Below the pieces are notes generated by a model. The model made no database searches. It was given only the letters and a program-made list of their open reading frames with translations, and was not told the DNA's origin. From the NCBI GenBank assembly GCA_029249345.1, contig JAQWHM010000011.1, positions 25,916 to 89,915 of the forward strand: a stretch of 64,000 bases of DNA, read 5' to 3'. Source of the stretch: Rhodothermales bacterium (GTDB lineage Bacteria; Bacteroidota; Rhodothermia; Rhodothermales; UBA10348). Position numbers and translations under genes: made by a program. Positions within the stretch are counted from its first letter, which is position 1; every line of letters starts with the position of its first letter. Shown piece after piece: positions 4,210 through 33,677 of the stretch.

Positions 4210-4653
4210 TTAATCTCGCTTTAATCCAGAGCGGTCTTGGGCAAATGCCGAGCGAACTTTGTAGGATGTTTCTCTTTGTGCCAACACGGGATGCTCACCA
4301 TTGTAAGATCCATCTCCCGCTTCCGTCGTTGGGGTTGATGGAGCATCCGAAAGGTCACTCTCATTGCTGAAATCTTTCAGATTGCAGCGAGCTTGGAGCT
4401 CAAACTTCCAAAGCGCAGCGCTCTCAATAATCATATCGATTTCAGTACCGTCAGTCAGCCCAATAGCCAAAAGATCTGAGGACCAACGTATCTCCTGAAT
4501 TTCGTCTAACCGTACAATCTGTTTGAAGCCTAGACCCTTCAAAATGATACAGTTTGGAAGCAAACGCGCCCGACCAAAGAACACCCTGTCGTGCTCAAAC
4601 TTGAACTTAGATTTCAGAATCACCACCTGATCCACTTTCCCTCTTCTCGGCAT
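4210..4653 (-). CDS. Hypothetical protein (beta-rich N-terminal domain, disordered C-terminal tail)
   Basis: 147-aa ORF 11 bp downstream of the C-N hydrolase on the same strand. Confidence 0.6.
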   Translation of the reverse strand: MPRRGKVDQVVILKSKFKFEHDRVFFGRARLLPNCIILKGLGFKQIVRLDEIQEIRWSSDLLAIGLTDGTEIDMIIESAALWKFELQARCNLKDFSNESDLSDAPSTPTTEAGDGSYNGEHPVLAQRETSYKVRSAFAQDRSGLKRD

Positions 4654-4664
4654 CTGAATGTAAC

Positions 4665-5507
4665 CTAGTCCGTTTTATTATTTAGACGCACAGCCTGTTC
4701 TATGTACTCCGACGGGCGTCGATGTTTCAAGAACATTGTGCGTGCCGGCGACTCGGCAACAGCATGATAATCCAGATCGGCGTACAGGATAGCATCCTGA
4801 CCTCCTGGGGCTTGAGCGATAATCTGCCCTCGCGGATCTGTAATGAATGACTCTCCGGCGAACGTGAGCACATCTTCTTCTCCTACCCTATTAGATAGAG
4901 CCATGAAAAAGCCATGCTGAAATGAACCCGCTTGAAGCTCGGCTTCAAAGACGCCCTCAGGCCACTCACCAGCCGCACCCGCTTGTGGGATCACTACTAC
5001 ATCAGCTTCTTGTAAGGCCATGGATCGCAGATGCTCGGGGTAGTGCCTATCGTAACAAATTGATACGCCAATTCGACCATGAGCCGTATCGTAGACAGGA
5101 GCTCCCGTGTTTCCGGGATCGTAGTAATCCTGCTCAAAAAACGATTCGTACTGCGTGATGTGCATCATCCGGGTTACCCCTAGAATAGTGCCATCGGCAT
5201 CGATCACAGGAGAGGAATCGTAGGCGCAATCACCGTCCCGCTCATACAGATTTAGTACAATGACAACGCCTTCCTTTCGGGCCAAATCAACAAACACATC
5301 GGTTGTTGGGCCAGGAACAGGTTCTGCTAGATCAAATCGGTCGCCTTCCAAACGCTTCTGCGGGAAAAACGTGGAAAAAGCCAGTTCGGGGAAAACGATA
5401 ATTTTTGCACCATTCTCAATGGCCGCACGTGCGTTTTCTAGACCTTTTTGCAGGTTTGCTTTCGAATCTGCTGATGCAGACTGCTGAATCAGTGCGATTC
5501 TAGGCAT
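4665..5507 (-). CDS. Carbon-nitrogen hydrolase (nitrilase superfamily, N-carbamoylputrescine amidase-like)
   Basis: FPEL (catalytic Glu), ICYDRHYPE (catalytic Cys), NRVGEE, FAGESFITDP; the usual catalytic Lys position reads TRMMHI. Confidence 0.88.
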   Translation of the reverse strand: MPRIALIQQSASADSKANLQKGLENARAAIENGAKIIVFPELAFSTFFPQKRLEGDRFDLAEPVPGPTTDVFVDLARKEGVVIVLNLYERDGDCAYDSSPVIDADGTILGVTRMMHITQYESFFEQDYYDPGNTGAPVYDTAHGRIGVSICYDRHYPEHLRSMALQEADVVVIPQAGAAGEWPEGVFEAELQAGSFQHGFFMALSNRVGEEDVLTFAGESFITDPRGQIIAQAPGGQDAILYADLDYHAVAESPARTMFLKHRRPSEYIEQAVRLNNKTD

Positions 5508-5574
5508 GAGTATTCAGAAATTGGGGGGATTCCGATTAAAATAAATGTAGACATAAACGAGTTACCATTCTTGC

Positions 5575-6279
5575 CTAAAGAGCGGTAGTCGGAGTAGACG
5601 TAGGCGTGGGTCCAAATGAACCCGCAAGTAACGTGAGTGCAAACAATACCACCACCAAAATACCACCAGCTTTCATCGCACCGCGCAGTCCGGTGTTAGC
5701 GCGTTTGGAGTCTTCCGTAGAAAGATCACTGATCAGCGTGGCATAGGTCTCCTTATCGAGTTCATGGACATATTGAGCATCCACCCCAGTAGCAATCTCG
5801 TTAGCCAGCTGCTCAAGCCAGTACAATCCAATAAGATTATCCATAGGCCTTGTTTGGCCCGATATGCGCTGAAACGTCCCTTTAATCTGAACAAACACGG
5901 ATTCATCGCGCTCTTCAGCATTTATGGCCACTTTCATGAGCAAGTTATCCAAGTCTGGAACATGAGCCAGGGTATCTGCCAGCGCTTGTTGAACAGTACT
6001 AACAGACACCTAATCTGTTTGAACTAGACCTATACGATCGTTGGCCAGAGTAATAGAAAAATTGGAAGAGATGAGAGCCGAAGTCGCCTGGTCAACGATA
6101 TCTATTCGGTCAGCCATAGAAGTGAATGCGACCGACTCAACAGAGCTTCGCACGGGCGATGGCGTGGATATATACCGAGGCTGTGCACATCCTGCGATGA
6201 GCAAACTCCAGGATAGCAATCCTGAGATCCAAACTAATTTTCGACTTCTATACACTATAAAATGGTGTTTAACCTTCAA
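5575..6279 (-). pseudogene. Lipoprotein gene interrupted by one in-frame TAG at 6010-6012
   Basis: ORFs 6010-6279 and 5575-6009 are in the same frame with zero gap: ...GLVQTD-TAG-VSVSTV...; lipobox LIAGC, C-terminal TM helix. Confidence 0.7.
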
Positions 6280-6360
6280 CTAGGTGATCGACCCCTATGG
6301 TGGGTGCTTAAGCCTCGGCTTTGCTAACACTGCCGATAATGCTAACCTCGTCAACCTTGC

Positions 6361-28382: not shown

Positions 28383-29369
28383 ATGGACGCATTTTTGACC
28401 ACGTCGGGCGTATTGGCGATTGGCATCATTTTGATGGCGCTGATCATCTTTCTGTACTTCATTCCAGTCGGCCTTTGGGTAACGGCGTTTTTCTCCGGAG
28501 TTAAGATCAAGCTCGTGCGGGATCTTATGGGAATGAGACTGCGAAAAGTGCCTCCGGTAGCCATAGTGAGACCTCTGATTACCTCTCATAAGGCAGGAAT
28601 CTATCTAGATGCCTCTCAATTGGAAGCCCACTTTTTGGCGGGTGGACAAGTTCAAAAGGTCGTTAATGCCTTAATTTCGGCAGATAAGGCTAACATTGAT
28701 CTGAATTTTGAACGCGCCACGGCTATTGACCTTGCGGGTCGAGATGTATTTGAAGCCGTTCAAGTCTCGGTCAACCCAAAAGTGATTGAAACACCGCCGG
28801 TTTCCGCTGTGGCCAAAGACGGAATCCAGGTACGAGCTATTGCTCGCGTTACGGTTCGGGCCAACATTGAACGCTTGGTGGGTGGAGCCGGAGAAGAGAC
28901 CATCATTGCTCGTGTTGGCGAGGGGATTGTTTCAACAATTGGTTCTTCCGCGACGCACAAGGCGGTTCTCGAAAACCCAGATTCTATTTCAAAAGTAGTA
29001 TTGGCTAAGGGTCTTGACTCCGGTACCGCATTTGAAATCTTATCTATTGATATTGCCGATGTAGATGTAGGCGAAAACATCGGTGCGAAACTGCAAACGG
29101 ATCAGGCGGATGCGGATCTGAAGATTGCCCGGGCCAAAGCTGAAGAGCGCCGCGCAGCAGCTGTCGCCATGGAGCAGGAAATGAAAGCAGTAGTTCAAGA
29201 GCAGCGAGCCAAAGTCGTTGCAGCCGAAGCAGAAGTCCCGCTTGCGATGGCCGACGCATTCAGAAATGGTCGTCTAGGTGTGATGGACTATTACAACATG
29301 CAAAACGTAGAAGCAGACACGCAGATGAGACGCTCCATCGGGGGTCCGGACGAAACGAAAAAAGACTAG
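28383..29369 (+). CDS. floA: Flotillin-like protein FloA (YqfA/UPF0365)
   Basis: [52 protein letters not shown]. Confidence 0.92.
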
Positions 29370-29390: not shown

Positions 29391-30671
29391 TCAGATCTGG
29401 TGCGCATCCCGCTGACGAGTGATGCGCACCATGTCGATGCGATTTGCGGTAGCTCTAAGAATAGCAAACCGAAATCCATCCAGTTCGAACTCATCGCGTA
29501 CGTCTGGAATGGCACCGAGCCGTTCCAGAAGGTATCCAGCGAGTGTTTCATAGTCGCCATCTGGAAGATGAATACCGGTTTTTTCGGCCAATTCGTCAAC
29601 TTCCAAGCGCCCAGCTGCAATAACTGACTCTTCGTTTATAATGCGAAGCGTATTCTCTTCCGTATCAAATTCATCCTGGATATCACCGAAAATCTCCTCG
29701 AGGAGATCCTCGCTGGTGACCAAACCAGCCGTCCCACCATATTCGTCAATTACGATGGCAATGGATGTGTTGGTCGCCAGAAATTCCCGCAGCAGTTCTT
29801 TAGAGAGCTTAGTTTCCGGGACATAGGTCCCAGGCCGCAACATGTCCTCAAGACTCTTGGGATCATTAAACAAGTCGTAAGCAAAGGCGATGCCAACAAT
29901 TTGGTCGATGTTATCCTTATAAATAGGAATCTTTGAGTGGCCCGATGCCACAAAGGACTGCCTGAGATCTTCGATAGAAGTGCCTTCTTCCAGGGCCATG
30001 ATATCCGTTCGGGGACACATGGACTCCTTCACCCGAATCGTGCTCATGGCAAATACATTGCTTAGCAGGGTGCTTTCTTCTTCATCGAGGTCTAATTCAC
30101 CCGTCTTTTTGCTTTCCTCGATCATCAATTCGAAGTCACGGCGCATAAACTGAGAGAAGGACCCGGAAGGTGCTTTGATCAACTTCATCAGTAGCGTCGC
30201 CGTCCAGCGAGCAATCAAGATCATCGGAAACAGAACGACGTAGGTAATCCTCAACGGGATAGCCAATGCAAAAACAGCGCGATTGGCGATTTCACGCATG
30301 ACCGATTTCGGAATGACCTCACCAATAATCAACACAACTAACGAAGCCAGAATGGTCTGAGTAGTTAAGGTCAGAATTCCTACCCCGGATGCGTCCAACC
30401 CCAAGACATTTCCGAAAAACGTATTGAGTGGCGACTCCAAATAAAGCGCAACAAGCGTTGAGTACACCACAAGTGCCAGGTTATTACCGACAAGGGTGGT
30501 GGTGAGTAGCGTATCCGGTTCTTCTAAAAACCGAGAGACCAAACGTCCAACCATACCTCCGCGACGCGCAAAAACTTCGACCTTGAGCCGATTGGCCGCC
30601 ACGAAAGCGATCTCCGATCCGGAGAAAAATGCGCTCAGGAGAAGCGCGATCAAAATTAGGGTGAGTTCCAT
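29391..30671 (-). CDS. Hemolysin-family CNNM/CBS/CorC-HlyC transporter-associated protein
   Basis: SAFFSGSEIA, TTLVGNN, GEVIPKS, VIDEYGGTAGLVT, ETLAGY. Confidence 0.92.
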   Translation of the reverse strand: MELTLILIALLLSAFFSGSEIAFVAANRLKVEVFARRGGMVGRLVSRFLEEPDTLLTTTLVGNNLALVVYSTLVALYLESPLNTFFGNVLGLDASGVGILTLTTQTILASLVVLIIGEVIPKSVMREIANRAVFALAIPLRITYVVLFPMILIARWTATLLMKLIKAPSGSFSQFMRRDFELMIEESKKTGELDLDEEESTLLSNVFAMSTIRVKESMCPRTDIMALEEGTSIEDLRQSFVASGHSKIPIYKDNIDQIVGIAFAYDLFNDPKSLEDMLRPGTYVPETKLSKELLREFLATNTSIAIVIDEYGGTAGLVTSEDLLEEIFGDIQDEFDTEENTLRIINEESVIAAGRLEVDELAEKTGIHLPDGDYETLAGYLLERLGAIPDVRDEFELDGFRFAILRATANRIDMVRITRQRDAHQI

Positions 30672-30699: not shown

Positions 30700-31482
30700 C
30701 TACTTCCCCTTAAATACGGCCTTCCTTTTTCCAAGAAATGCATCGACCCCTTCCTGGAAGTCGTCTGTTCCACACGCTTGCCCGAACAAATCGGCCTCTT
30801 TCTGAAGACCCTCTGCCTGGGGCAGATCAGCGTACTGAAGTGCTTCTAAGCTGAAAGCAACCGCGATGGGTGCCTTGGAAATAATGGTACCGATCAATTT
30901 CCGAGCACCTGGGAGGAGTTCTTCAGACGTATAAACATGATTAACCAGTCCAATGGCATGGGCCCGCTCGGCATTTACCATATTACCCGATAGAATCAAC
31001 TCCGTGGCAATCCCTTTCCCCACAATCCGGGGAAGCCTTTGTGTCGCACCATATCCGGGAAGGATACCGAGGTTAACCTCTGGCTGGCCAAATAGGGCAT
31101 TATCACTGGCTACACGCATGTGGCAAGCCAAGGCCAATTCGCTACCGCCACCTAATGCAAAACCGTTAACGGCAGCCACAACAGGTTTGGCTGATCCTTC
31201 AATTTTGTTGAATACCCCTTGCCCGTAATCGGCAAACGCTTTCCCTTCGACAGGACCCAATTCCTTGAACTGGGAAATATCCGCACCTGCAACAAACGCC
31301 TTGGGCCCGGCTCCAGTTAGGATGATACCTTTGACGGCCGAATCGGTAGCTGCAGAGGTAAACCAATCATCTAAATCCGCAAGCACTTCAGCATTGAGCG
31401 CATTCAGCTTAGTGGGTCTATTGATAGTAACGACTGCGATTCCTTCTGAATCAACTTCGACGAGAAGCGTAGAGTACGACAT
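30700..31482 (-). CDS. Enoyl-CoA hydratase/crotonase family protein
   Basis: AFVAGADI, GFALGGGSELALACH, GQPEVNLGILPGYGATQRL. Confidence 0.93.
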   Translation of the reverse strand: MSYSTLLVEVDSEGIAVVTINRPTKLNALNAEVLADLDDWFTSAATDSAVKGIILTGAGPKAFVAGADISQFKELGPVEGKAFADYGQGVFNKIEGSAKPVVAAVNGFALGGGSELALACHMRVASDNALFGQPEVNLGILPGYGATQRLPRIVGKGIATELILSGNMVNAERAHAIGLVNHVYTSEELLPGARKLIGTIISKAPIAVAFSLEALQYADLPQAEGLQKEADLFGQACGTDDFQEGVDAFLGKRKAVFKGK

Positions 31483-31531
31483 GCGGGTATGTAATGAAGT
31501 GGGCGTGACTGCACGCGGGAAATTCGACGGA

Positions 31532-32404
31532 CTATTCTTGTACACGCGTACCGATCGAGGAGGATTCCTCGCTTAATGGATCTTCAAACGTATCCATTTC
31601 GGTTAGCAGATCGAGAGGATTGGCAAATACTTCTTCCATTTCCTCAACGGATGCCTGTGTTTCTTCAACTTCGGTCAGCAAGGTATCGAGCTGGAATGAA
31701 ATCTCTTCTGGATTACGCAGCGTGAGCGACTGTTCGTGGATGTATTTAACCACATCCTCAACTGTTTCGAGTTGAGCCTCAATGATTTCTAAATTCTCTT
31801 GTCCTTTTTTGGACCGATCTAGACGCTGCTCTAAAATACGCAGTCGTCGAGCCTTGATGGCGCGCACTCTCGGGGAGTCGTCCTCCATATCCACCCGTAA
31901 ATCCTCAATAGAGCGTATAACCTCCATCTCGGTGCCCGACTGAACAGAATACTCATACCGCTCTTTCTGGTAGAGTAACTTCATGTACGACTCGAGTAGT
32001 CCGTCAATTTTTTTCAGATGAGAATCCAACATACCCTGCGAGGCATAGCTCAATTTCCGGTAGTTGGTCCGGATAGACTTTTCGACCTTGCGCAACCCTA
32101 CGTAGCGCCGTCTGTCTGGAGCGGCAAGGTTCTGATACAGTTCTTTTTGGGATGGTGGCTTGGCGTACTCCGCAGATACACGCGAGCGAACCGCTTTTCT
32201 AAATCGTGGATCGCGCGGCATCATTCCTAACAAAGCCAACTCCGTCCCTGCCGTAAATATGAGCGCGGCATCAAAAAACCAAGCTGGAGCACCCGTCAAG
32301 CTGACCCCAAAGGCTACCATCATAGCCATAATAAGGAATGTAAGATTCCACGGATGTAGAAATGCTTCCTTCGTGTAGTTGATATCCTGATGTATGGGCT
32401 TCAA
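31532..32404 (-). CDS. Hypothetical membrane protein (2 TM helices, long coiled coil), PspA-operon partner
   Basis: N-terminal hydrophobic hairpin, heptad-rich cytoplasmic part; third gene of the pspA operon. Confidence 0.8.
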   Translation of the reverse strand: MKPIHQDINYTKEAFLHPWNLTFLIMAMMVAFGVSLTGAPAWFFDAALIFTAGTELALLGMMPRDPRFRKAVRSRVSAEYAKPPSQKELYQNLAAPDRRRYVGLRKVEKSIRTNYRKLSYASQGMLDSHLKKIDGLLESYMKLLYQKERYEYSVQSGTEMEVIRSIEDLRVDMEDDSPRVRAIKARRLRILEQRLDRSKKGQENLEIIEAQLETVEDVVKYIHEQSLTLRNPEEISFQLDTLLTEVEETQASVEEMEEVFANPLDLLTEMDTFEDPLSEESSSIGTRVQE

Positions 32405-32438: not shown

Positions 32439-32897
32439 TTAAGGCTTCATTCTTCCGATAGTTTTTTCTGGAAGGGGCTTCTCTTCCGATTTGGTATCAA
32501 TTGGACTCGGTTCGGAAGTAGGTGCATTCTTCTGCTGAACGGCACCCGTTTCCTGCTTCATCTGATTGATTAGGTCCCTAGCTCTCGCCTTTTTCTGTTC
32601 CTCTTCCAATTTCGCCAACTCCGCCGCGTCCTGAGCCTCAGACACTTCTGAGTTCATCTCAACAGAGTCCAGTGCCACTTCCATGCGAGCCTCTGACAAG
32701 GCTGAATCCATTTGAAGGCGCTCGATCATCTGACCATGCTCATCGAATAGATCCTGCATATCCGTAGCCATACCAGTCACCGCTTTCGTGACCGACGACT
32801 TTCTAGATGCCGAACGTTGCGCCTTTTTAAGATCTCTGATCTTACGAAGATGCTCTTTTTCGGCTTCTTTTAATTTCTGATACTCTTCAGGTGTCAT
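32439..32897 (-). CDS. Truncated PspA paralog (C-terminal-region homolog)
   Basis: ALSEARMEVALDSV against ALNEARMEMALDSV in the adjacent PspA; shared KTIG tail. Confidence 0.8.
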   Translation of the reverse strand: MTPEEYQKLKEAEKEHLRKIRDLKKAQRSASRKSSVTKAVTGMATDMQDLFDEHGQMIERLQMDSALSEARMEVALDSVEMNSEVSEAQDAAELAKLEEEQKKARARDLINQMKQETGAVQQKNAPTSEPSPIDTKSEEKPLPEKTIGRMKP

Positions 32898-32906
32898 GAT
32901 CGAATC

Positions 32907-33677
32907 TTATTGACCCTTTGTACGCTGTTTTCCAATGGTCTTATAACCCGTCTCAGCTTCTTGCTCTGAAATATCGAGTTGCGGCTCTTCGGCTGATCCA
33001 CTCGTATCACCTACGCCCATTTCAAGTTTGAACTGCTTGACCAGTTCTGAAGCACGAATCTGCTGCGCGTCTTCCTCGATTTTGAGCGTTTCTGTGTCCA
33101 CAGAATCCAACGCCATTTCCATGCGAGCTTCATTGAGTGCAGTTTGTTCTTGGATACGATTGAGCATTTCGTCGTGGGTCTGATCGATGCCAGCAACCTC
33201 AAAGGACTCGAGTGTATCCGCAACTTTGGCCTGCCACTTGGCACGTTCGTGGGCACGCAATGCATCTTTCGCTTCTGCAATCTTACGTTCTTTCTCCCGC
33301 ATGAACGCTTTTTTGACCTGAAGAGCCTTGTCGTATGCCGCAGATGCATACTTGAGTTGCTCTTTAGCCGATGATACATTTTCTCTGACCGACTCTAGTC
33401 GCATTGCGTATCGCTCAGCAATGTCATCGCGTCCAGCCTGAATTCCAGCTTTTACTTTGGAAGTAACGTCAGCCAGTTCCTTCTCATACTTTCGTACTTC
33501 TTTCTGAAGCATCATCACGTTGGCTTTCACCGTTGCGATGTTTTCGTTCATTTTCGGGACCTGATCGTTGAGCTCCCTAATGTTCTGCTCGAGGATCAAC
33601 TTGGGATCTTCGAGAGCGGAAATTGCACCGCCGAAAACAGATTTAACAAATCGCGTGAAACGTGACCAGATGGACAT
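32907..33677 (-). CDS. pspA: PspA/IM30 family protein (bacterial ESCRT-III)
   Basis: MSIWSRFTRFVKSVFG amphipathic helix 0, EDPKLILEQNIREL, long coiled coil. Confidence 0.9.
   Translation of the reverse strand: MSIWSRFTRFVKSVFGGAISALEDPKLILEQNIRELNDQVPKMNENIATVKANVMMLQKEVRKYEKELADVTSKVKAGIQAGRDDIAERYAMRLESVRENVSSAKEQLKYASAAYDKALQVKKAFMREKERKIAEAKDALRAHERAKWQAKVADTLESFEVAGIDQTHDEMLNRIQEQTALNEARMEMALDSVDTETLKIEEDAQQIRASELVKQFKLEMGVGDTSGSAEEPQLDISEQEAETGYKTIGKQRTKGQ

Follow-up and report, generated by a model that had tools for sequence, protein, structure and literature searches.

Immediately downstream of the membrane-repair gene pspA, in the 64,000-nucleotide stretch of DNA from a Rhodothermales bacterium that we analysed (referred to below as the window), lies a short open reading frame that, as judged from sequence comparisons, is a functional gene and not a decaying copy. 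By the same comparisons it is a duplicate of the part of pspA that encodes approximately residues 118-256, namely the distal part of helix α3, helices α4 and α5, a linker and a C-terminal tail that bears the motif KTIG. Tentatively, and with a little less than even confidence, we propose that the encoded protein (here called the short protein) is a non-propagating accessory subunit (a cap, a decoy or an adaptor) of a class-specific module composed of pspA, the short gene and a third gene that we call TM290. The coordinates of the features discussed are collected in Table 1.

The assignment of the short gene as a copy of this particular segment was made because the segment mapping and the alignments cover that span. 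In a single BLASTP comparison with the neighbouring PspA, residues 14-149 of the short protein aligned with PspA residues 127-250 (33% identity, E = 4e-14). When profiles of 21 short proteins and of 21 PspA proteins were compared using hhalign, short residues 18-151 aligned with PspA residues 131-252 with a probability of 98.9% and an E value of 2e-17. (The input for the profiles was the three proteins of the module extracted from 20 genomes of the order Rhodothermales, and helices were assigned to segments through an alignment of PspA with Vipp1 together with the Vipp1 literature, PMC8281802.) The resemblance between the short protein and PspA, in both of these alignments, is far above chance. 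An earlier note on this DNA had described the open reading frame as a paralog that keeps only the C-terminal region of PspA; BLASTP recovered all three of the alignments that the note had quoted, and with hhalign it establishes a true paralog of the adjacent PspA in which only the C-terminal part (α3C-α4-α5 and the tail) was kept. The note had also stated that the amphipathic helix α0 and most of the hairpin are missing, with a short basic helix in their place. The absence of α0 and of the α1-α2 hairpin was borne out, because PspA residues 1-117 align to nothing in the short protein. The basic N-terminal helix is present too, but it is neither a replacement nor novel, because it is homologous to distal α3, on which the profile alignment begins (short residue 18). 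By eye, KEAEKEHLRKIRDLKKAQR of the short protein pairs with KAFMREKERKIAEAKDALR of PspA in distal α3, and the N-terminus of the short protein, MTPEEYQKLKEAEKEHLRK, is charged and aligns to distal α3 and not to the PspA sequence with which the presence of α0 was checked, MSIWSRFTRFVKSVFGGAIS.

Table 1. Features of the pspA-short-TM290 locus (positions in the window).
Feature	Position	Strand	Description
FloA	28383-29369	+	Flotillin-like (PF12127, 1e-159); downstream gene
CNNM/CBS/CorC	29391-30671	-	Downstream gene
ECH	30700-31545	-	Downstream gene
TM290	31532-32404	-	290 aa; two N-terminal TM helices, conserved cytoplasmic (predicted) helical domain, acidic C-tail
Short PspA paralog	32439-32897	-	152 aa; ATG start, TAA stop
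EKTIGR, short residues 144-149	32451-32468	-	Short linear motif [KR][TS][ILVM]G, common to PspA
Linker, short residues 120-143	32469-32540	-	Disordered, Pro/Ser/Glu-rich, variable length, relaxed selection
α5C-like segment, short residues 97-119	32541-32609	-	ARARDLINQMKQETG; RA...Q.K common to PspA
Acidic insert, short residues 80-96	32610-32660	-	In place of PspA α5N; variable length, not conserved
α4-like segment, short residues 51-79	32661-32747	-	EARMEVALDS conserved in PspA and the short family
N-terminal helix, short residues 1-45	32763-32897	-	Net +6; homologous to distal PspA α3
PspA/IM30 (bacterial ESCRT-III), parent gene	32907-33677	-	256 aa; PF04012, 3.5e-19, 69.7 bits
PspA residues 118-256	32910-33326	-	Segment duplicated into the short gene
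PspA tail motif, KTIGK, residues 246-250	32928-32942	-	
Tail-motif peptide sequences			LPEKTIGRMKP and GYKTIGKQRTKG

Domain libraries did not recognise the short protein: PF04012 gave no match at E ≤ 1 (the gathering cut-off is 33.9 bits, and the neighbouring PspA scored 69.7), and the best matches in a scan of NCBIfam were noise. Searches for a related structure or fold (phmmer, a profile search of the PDB and Foldseek) likewise returned no match; note that a fold search is uninformative for a protein predicted to be a single long helix. Specifically, AF2, run with a 30-sequence alignment, predicted one uninterrupted helix over residues 3-119 (pLDDT > 90) and then a disordered tail, with no hairpin and no strands. 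Within the linker the pLDDT fell below 50 over residues 121-138.

Conservation is concentrated in particular parts of the protein. The short family opens with a near-invariant motif, MTPEEYxxxKEAEKEHLRKL, of which K10, E13, K14, L17 and R18 are invariant and lie on one face of the N-terminal helix; in other orders of the class this motif has diverged to ERERLKEEYKDHYRR. The columns conserved in the short family and in PspA alike are EAR[LM]E.AL in α4, RA...Q.K in α5C, and KT.G in the tail. By BLASTP and hhalign, the helices that form the donor side in PspA (α4 and α5) are both represented in the short protein, with the exception that α5N, which holds the Interface-3 residues, is not conserved in the short family.

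Rates of substitution were estimated by the method of Nei and Gojobori from comparisons with three close relatives of metagenomic origin (92%, 82% and 69% identity). For the whole short gene dN/dS was 0.07-0.10 across the three relatives, and in the same comparison it was 0.02-0.05 for pspA and 0.01-0.03 for TM290. Segment by segment, ω was 0.01-0.06 for the N-terminal helix, 0.06 for α4-α5 (closest relative only, dS being saturated in the other two) and 0.35-0.6 for the linker; for the tail (residues 141-152) it was 0 against the two closest relatives, with two nonsynonymous changes against the third (L035). The earlier note had suggested dN/dS across orthologs as a check, with confinement to this genome and signs of decay as the outcome that would tell against it. 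What we found is purifying selection on a gene conserved across a bacterial class.

The breadth of that conservation was apparent in several searches. A protein search returned 192 homologs, all annotated as "hypothetical protein" and all from Rhodothermales or Bacteroidota, and when 1.84 billion cluster representatives were searched with a profile, 360 matched, 245 of them at E ≤ 1e-10. Named records in the family come from Roseithermus sacchariphilus, Rubrivirga litoralis, Rhodocaloribacter litoris, Salinibacter, Salinivenus and Longimonas. (Three family members that resembled domain fusions, P0286, P0315 and P0351, were set aside, as they look like chimeras of assembly or gene calling.) Both pspA and the short gene were present and adjoining in 40 of 41 relatives. 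The gene order PYNP-pspA-short-TM290, where PYNP denotes pyrimidine-nucleoside phosphorylase, was found in all 20 of the Rhodothermales loci sampled, and the same trio of pspA, short gene and TM290 occurs in the other orders of the class. When the class as a whole was searched, every one of 121 genomes matched and 111 (~92%) had at least two matches, corresponding to PspA and the short protein; among ~150 genomes of the rest of the phylum there was one weak match, and no genome had two.

A maximum-likelihood tree of 34 PspA C-terminal halves and 30 short proteins placed the two groups on either side of a single branch (SH-aLRT 99), with branches that were approximately five-fold longer among the short proteins. 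This topology agrees with a single old duplication. In two lineages (L041/L042 and L045/L046) the short gene has since been cleanly lost, and pspA there directly abuts TM290. We saw nothing convincing by way of compensation in PspA or TM290 in these two lineages, and nothing convincing that compensates for loss of the PspA tail motif where that has occurred; the short gene is therefore dispensable in the two lineages, having been lost there with no visible compensating change. In a further lineage, f22, inferred to be of Salinibacter type, the short protein is only ~120 residues long and has no α5, retaining the N-terminal helix, α4 and KTIG; these proteins match the family profile at 3e-15 to 4e-14.

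The C-terminus of the short family is near-invariant, (L)PEKTIGRM(K/R)(P/R), and PspA tails carry KT[ILV]G[KR], ending KT[ILV]G[KR]QRTQ, in 19 of 21 members of the order, with variants across the class. We searched 262 representatives of the family for [KR][TS][ILVM]G and compared the counts with those in composition-preserving shuffles. At least one copy was present in 252 of the 262, and 330 motifs were observed in all, versus 6.1 (maximum 13) in the shuffles. Sixty-seven representatives (26%) had two to four copies, all of them in the disordered tail (P0334, for example, has four and P0375 three), and position 2 was always Thr or Ser. PspA retains the motif even in lineages that have no short gene, and in the genome studied here the only genuine C-terminal tails that bear it are those of the short protein and PspA; the motif was found in none of 120 TM290 tails. 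Eight canonical PspA proteins of other classes that we inspected had no KTIG tail, and had neither a short gene nor TM290 nearby. Of note, two Rhodothermales PspA proteins without a KTIG tail (L019 and L021) adjoin short proteins that each have two copies of the motif; this pattern is not significant, because there are only two such cases and 26% of short proteins have at least two copies.

Taken as a conserved island within a disordered and fast-evolving region that recurs both within and between proteins, KTIG is, on the evidence of the alignments, a well-supported short linear motif common to PspA and its paralog. The suggestion that the tail resembles a recruitment motif, which the earlier note had put forward as conjecture, is strongly backed by these comparisons: the motif is near-invariant and often repeated, shows an ω of 0, lies in a disordered tail and is found on PspA too. 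Tails with several copies would be suited to avid binding of a repeated lattice or of an oligomer.

The parent protein is itself distinctive. The PspA of the window aligns over residues 1-238 to structures of Synechocystis Vipp1 (8qfv/7o3w, 4e-6). Throughout the class each genome has this PspA and no other, and the proteins form a divergent clade, scoring 55-74 bits against PF04012 versus 113-187 bits for the PspA proteins of the phylum's other classes; within the class it is very strongly conserved (64-91% identity, ω 0.02-0.05). Upstream of pspA are the genes for PYNP, NhaA and ribosomal protein L31. Downstream of the trio are those for an enoyl-CoA hydratase (ECH) and a CNNM/CBS/CorC transporter, and then a divergently oriented gene for the flotillin FloA; ECH comes after TM290 in 16 of 20 loci, and 11 of 20 have CNNM nearby. 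Associations of PspA with flotillins are known in other systems.

The short gene lies 3' of pspA, and its ATG is separated from the pspA stop codon by 9 nt (positions 32,898-32,906). Across 20 genomes the two genes are on the same strand with a gap of -1 to 124 nt, and we found no terminator-like sites on the minus strand between pspA, the short gene and TM290. In the window and in its closest relatives (L030, L031 and L033-L035) the 9-nt gap is in frame and contains no recognisable Shine-Dalgarno sequence. We entertained the possibility that read-through of the stop codon yields a fusion of PspA with the short protein and rejected it, because the length and the frame of the gap vary across the 20 genomes, with all three frames represented and often with further stop codons.

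TM290, the third gene of the module, has a helical domain of ~200 residues that is extremely conserved. It was present in 50 of 50 genomes of the class and in 0 of 151 from the rest of the phylum, and so co-distributes perfectly with this clade of PspA. AF2 modelled the protein as all-helical (pLDDT 76). A basic juxtamembrane stretch carries a net charge of +12, on account of which the large domain should be cytoplasmic, and the last 60 residues carry a net charge of -17; the basic tails, of +2 and +4, lie opposite this acidic C-terminus. TM290 has no Pfam match, and neither Pfam nor Foldseek revealed a recognisable peptide-binding fold. We also considered whether TM290 is a homolog of PspA or of Snf7; this was not confirmed, with Pfam, hhalign and Foldseek all falling short of significance: PF03357 (Snf7) matched 3 of 31 TM290 members, with a best E value of 0.24, and nothing in the genome at E ≤ 10; hhalign of TM290 against PspA gave a probability of 0.4%; and Foldseek returned nothing below E 0.2 (CdvB2, 9s99_B, 0.88; Vipp1, 8qbr, 1.5). 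By association, TM290 is nevertheless our best candidate for the receptor of KTIG, because of its perfect co-distribution, its predicted cytoplasmic domain and the acidic C-tail opposite the basic tails. (Two unusual loci should be mentioned. In one f22-family locus, L049, at G138:C1, ~4440-6341, two tandem TM290 paralogs follow the short gene, the second of which has diverged, E = 2e-44; and in a genome of another order, at G061:C1:2082567-2083321, the match to TM290 is split by a TAA codon and may represent a pseudogene or a sequencing error.)

How might such a protein act? In polymers of Vipp1 and PspA, α5N binds the hairpin in the next rung and α4 contacts α2, and removal of α5/α6 abolishes assembly (PMC8281802). 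By homology with Vipp1, the part of PspA retained in the short protein would be the donor at polymer Interfaces 1, 3 and 4. We envisage the following. A single duplication of the 3' part of pspA, at an early stage of the class Rhodothermia (which comprises Rhodothermales and the Balneola-type orders), gave a product consisting of one long helix (residues 3-119), built from the counterparts of distal α3, α4 and α5C, followed by a linker and between one and four motif copies. This product keeps the parts that a subunit gives to its neighbours (α4 and α5, which dock on a neighbouring hairpin) and also the tail motif; it lacks the membrane-binding α0 and the part that receives the next subunit. 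It would dock on the hairpins of PspA, on the receptor of KTIG (TM290 being the candidate), or on both. Docking would then limit, decorate or redirect PspA polymers. That the short protein binds, what it binds and how polymers would respond are things that we infer, and the capping or termination of PspA filaments that the earlier note had raised is speculation. Evidence from sequence argues against a strict cap based on α5 as the universal function of the family: α5N is unconserved in the short family, the f22 proteins have no α5 and the gene has been lost in two lineages. The accessory-subunit model also leaves the invariant N-terminal face and motif unexplained.

A different reading, which we regard as somewhat unlikely, is that the short protein is an adaptor or competitor that works through its tail: KTIG would compete with the PspA tail, or add valency to it, at a common receptor (TM290 or another protein), the helical part would be a coiled-coil scaffold only, and the N-terminal motif would bind a third partner. 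On this reading the conserved Thr/Ser could make the motif a phospho-switch, in keeping with its presence at position 2 in every copy. It is favoured by the fact that KTIG, the N-helix motif and the α4 motif are the only features present in every lineage, the α5-less f22 included, and it would fit the repetition of the motif in 26% of members, its retention by PspA where the short gene was lost, its restriction in this genome to the tails of the short protein and PspA, and the placement of basic tails (+2 and +4) facing an acidic TM290 C-terminus (-17). However, the conservation of EAR[LM]E.AL and of the α5C residues jointly with PspA is left unexplained by an adaptor of this kind, no receptor fold is recognised in TM290, and the genome has no MIT domain. 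The short protein could also be a holding factor, since paralogs that arise from a self-associating segment often bind their parent. In that scenario the long helix would pair with α3C-α5 or with the hairpin of unassembled PspA in a soluble heterodimer that blocks polymerisation until membrane stress, making the short protein an anti-assembly chaperone and not a component of the polymer. The single 117-residue helix predicted by AF2 is unlikely to be stable by itself, the close linkage of the genes suggests co-production, and there is a precedent in the C-terminal extension of Vipp1, which destabilises the hairpin-H5 interface (PMC7619361). Set against this, α4 and α5 touch hairpins, and not each other, in the known polymers of PspA and Vipp1, and a multivalent tail motif would be left without a role; we consider a holding factor quite improbable.

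The short protein might, finally, be a coiled-coil protein that is functionally unlinked to PspA and whose place beside it reflects nothing but descent; it could, for instance, have a structural or regulatory role directed at TM290, enoyl-CoA hydratase or CNNM/CorC. Neither Pfam, NCBIfam nor the PDB gave a match for it, and it is dispensable in some lineages, as one might expect of such a protein. We nonetheless judge this highly improbable in the face of the class-wide adjacency to pspA on the same strand and in the same order, the conservation of the α4, α5C and tail motifs jointly with PspA, and the finding that the short gene exists only where this clade of PspA exists. The accessory-subunit reading remains the one we prefer; jointly conserved columns, selection, synteny, gene linkage, co-distribution and the motif statistics, all of them drawn from sequence, support it. 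A more ambitious version, which strikes us as distinctly unlikely, would be a three-part bacterial ESCRT-III machine, parallel in its logic to the eukaryotic one, in which PspA forms the polymer, TM290 (possibly Snf7-like) is a partner anchored in the membrane, the dedicated hairpin-less paralog ends or decorates the polymer, and the multivalent KTIG, present on PspA and the paralog alike, wires the parts together as a bacterial counterpart of the MIM.

The existence of the gene, and a vague resemblance to PspA, are already on record. Ravi et al. 2024 (mSystems, PMC11237479, main text and Table S3) list an "Rmar_0091 coiled-coil" in the PspA neighbourhood of Salinibacter ruber M8, in the context PspA, coiled-coil, TM+Snf7, the last being their label for the counterpart of TM290. 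Their coiled-coil protein, encoded downstream of L31 and PYNP, belongs to the same family and lies in the same context, the order in the window being L31, NhaA, PYNP, PspA, short protein, TM290. That paper devotes one sentence and one table row to the gene and proposes no function for it; the partial duplication of PspA α3C-α5 and the tail, KTIG, the distribution, the selection and the losses are all absent from it. We found nothing further in the literature on truncated or hairpin-less PspA paralogs or on the locus tags. What appears to be new here, then, is the homology by partial duplication, the missing hairpin and the multivalent motif common to both proteins, together with the occurrence of the gene across the class, the selection on it and its loss in some lineages.

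If the three-part machine outlined above exists, the short protein would be the first natural "donor-only" subunit in the ESCRT-III superfamily, and KTIG the first recruitment code based on a tail motif to be defined for a bacterial PspA. What this family represents could be a trans-acting copy of α4-α5-tail, of natural origin, that one class has kept for hundreds of millions of years, and, together with the repeated motif, it would offer a handle on heteromeric control of bacterial ESCRT-III, on the roles of the PspA tail and on that of the TM partner. Even a protein that is only an adaptor would define a new family of PspA partners. Rhodothermus marinus (with genetic tools for strain PRI 493), Salinibacter ruber and Roseithermus are available as hosts that have been cultured and are partly tractable.

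PspA and Vipp1 of bacteria now count as ESCRT-III proteins and are thought to be mostly homopolymeric, unlike the eukaryotic and archaeal systems; the known paradigms for control of their assembly are PspF/B/C of E. coli and Lia of Bacillus. Heteropolymers have been expected only in the fewer than 10% of bacteria that have duplications of PspA, and the review that makes this point does not discuss a hairpin-less paralog (PMC7619361). With the PspA/Vipp1 (IM30)/LiaH family (PF04012) the short protein shares, by homology, distal α3, α4, α5C and the C-terminal tail. It differs in having neither α0 nor the α1-α2/3 hairpin, which in that family defines the fold, builds the protofilament and accepts α5, and in evolving approximately five times faster than PspA. 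A parallel in terms of gene arrangement is PspAA, which is likewise a small protein encoded directly beside pspA in a two-gene unit and consists of three helices together with a β-sheet of four strands (Ravi et al. 2024, PMC11237479). We rejected the idea that the short protein is PspAA, because PspAA contains a β-sheet whereas the short protein, which is homologous to PspA, is predicted to be strand-free, comprising a single helix and a tail.

MIM motifs in the tails of ESCRT-III subunits bind the MIT domain of Vps4. Like these motifs, and like α6 of Vipp1, KTIG is a short conserved element that ends a disordered tail of ESCRT-III type and is probably displayed outside the polymer. Unlike them, it has neither the amphipathic helix of MIM1 nor the proline-rich pattern of MIM2, occurs on a second protein too, and is often repeated. 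A MIM/Vps4-type reading of the tail was rejected: the motif fits neither MIM pattern, and the genome is without a MIT domain (PF04212, E ≤ 1). As for the helical part, ESCRT-III paralogs in eukaryotes and archaea are known to cap or remodel the polymer of another subunit, as Vps24/Vps2 do with Snf7, IST1 with CHMP1B, and CdvB1/B2 with CdvB. By analogy with Vps24/Vps2, IST1 and CdvB1/B2, the short protein, as a paralog of a polymer former, could alter the growth or shape of the polymer. All of those paralogs, however, have a complete hairpin core, whereas the short protein has none and therefore could only occupy sites, never extend the polymer.
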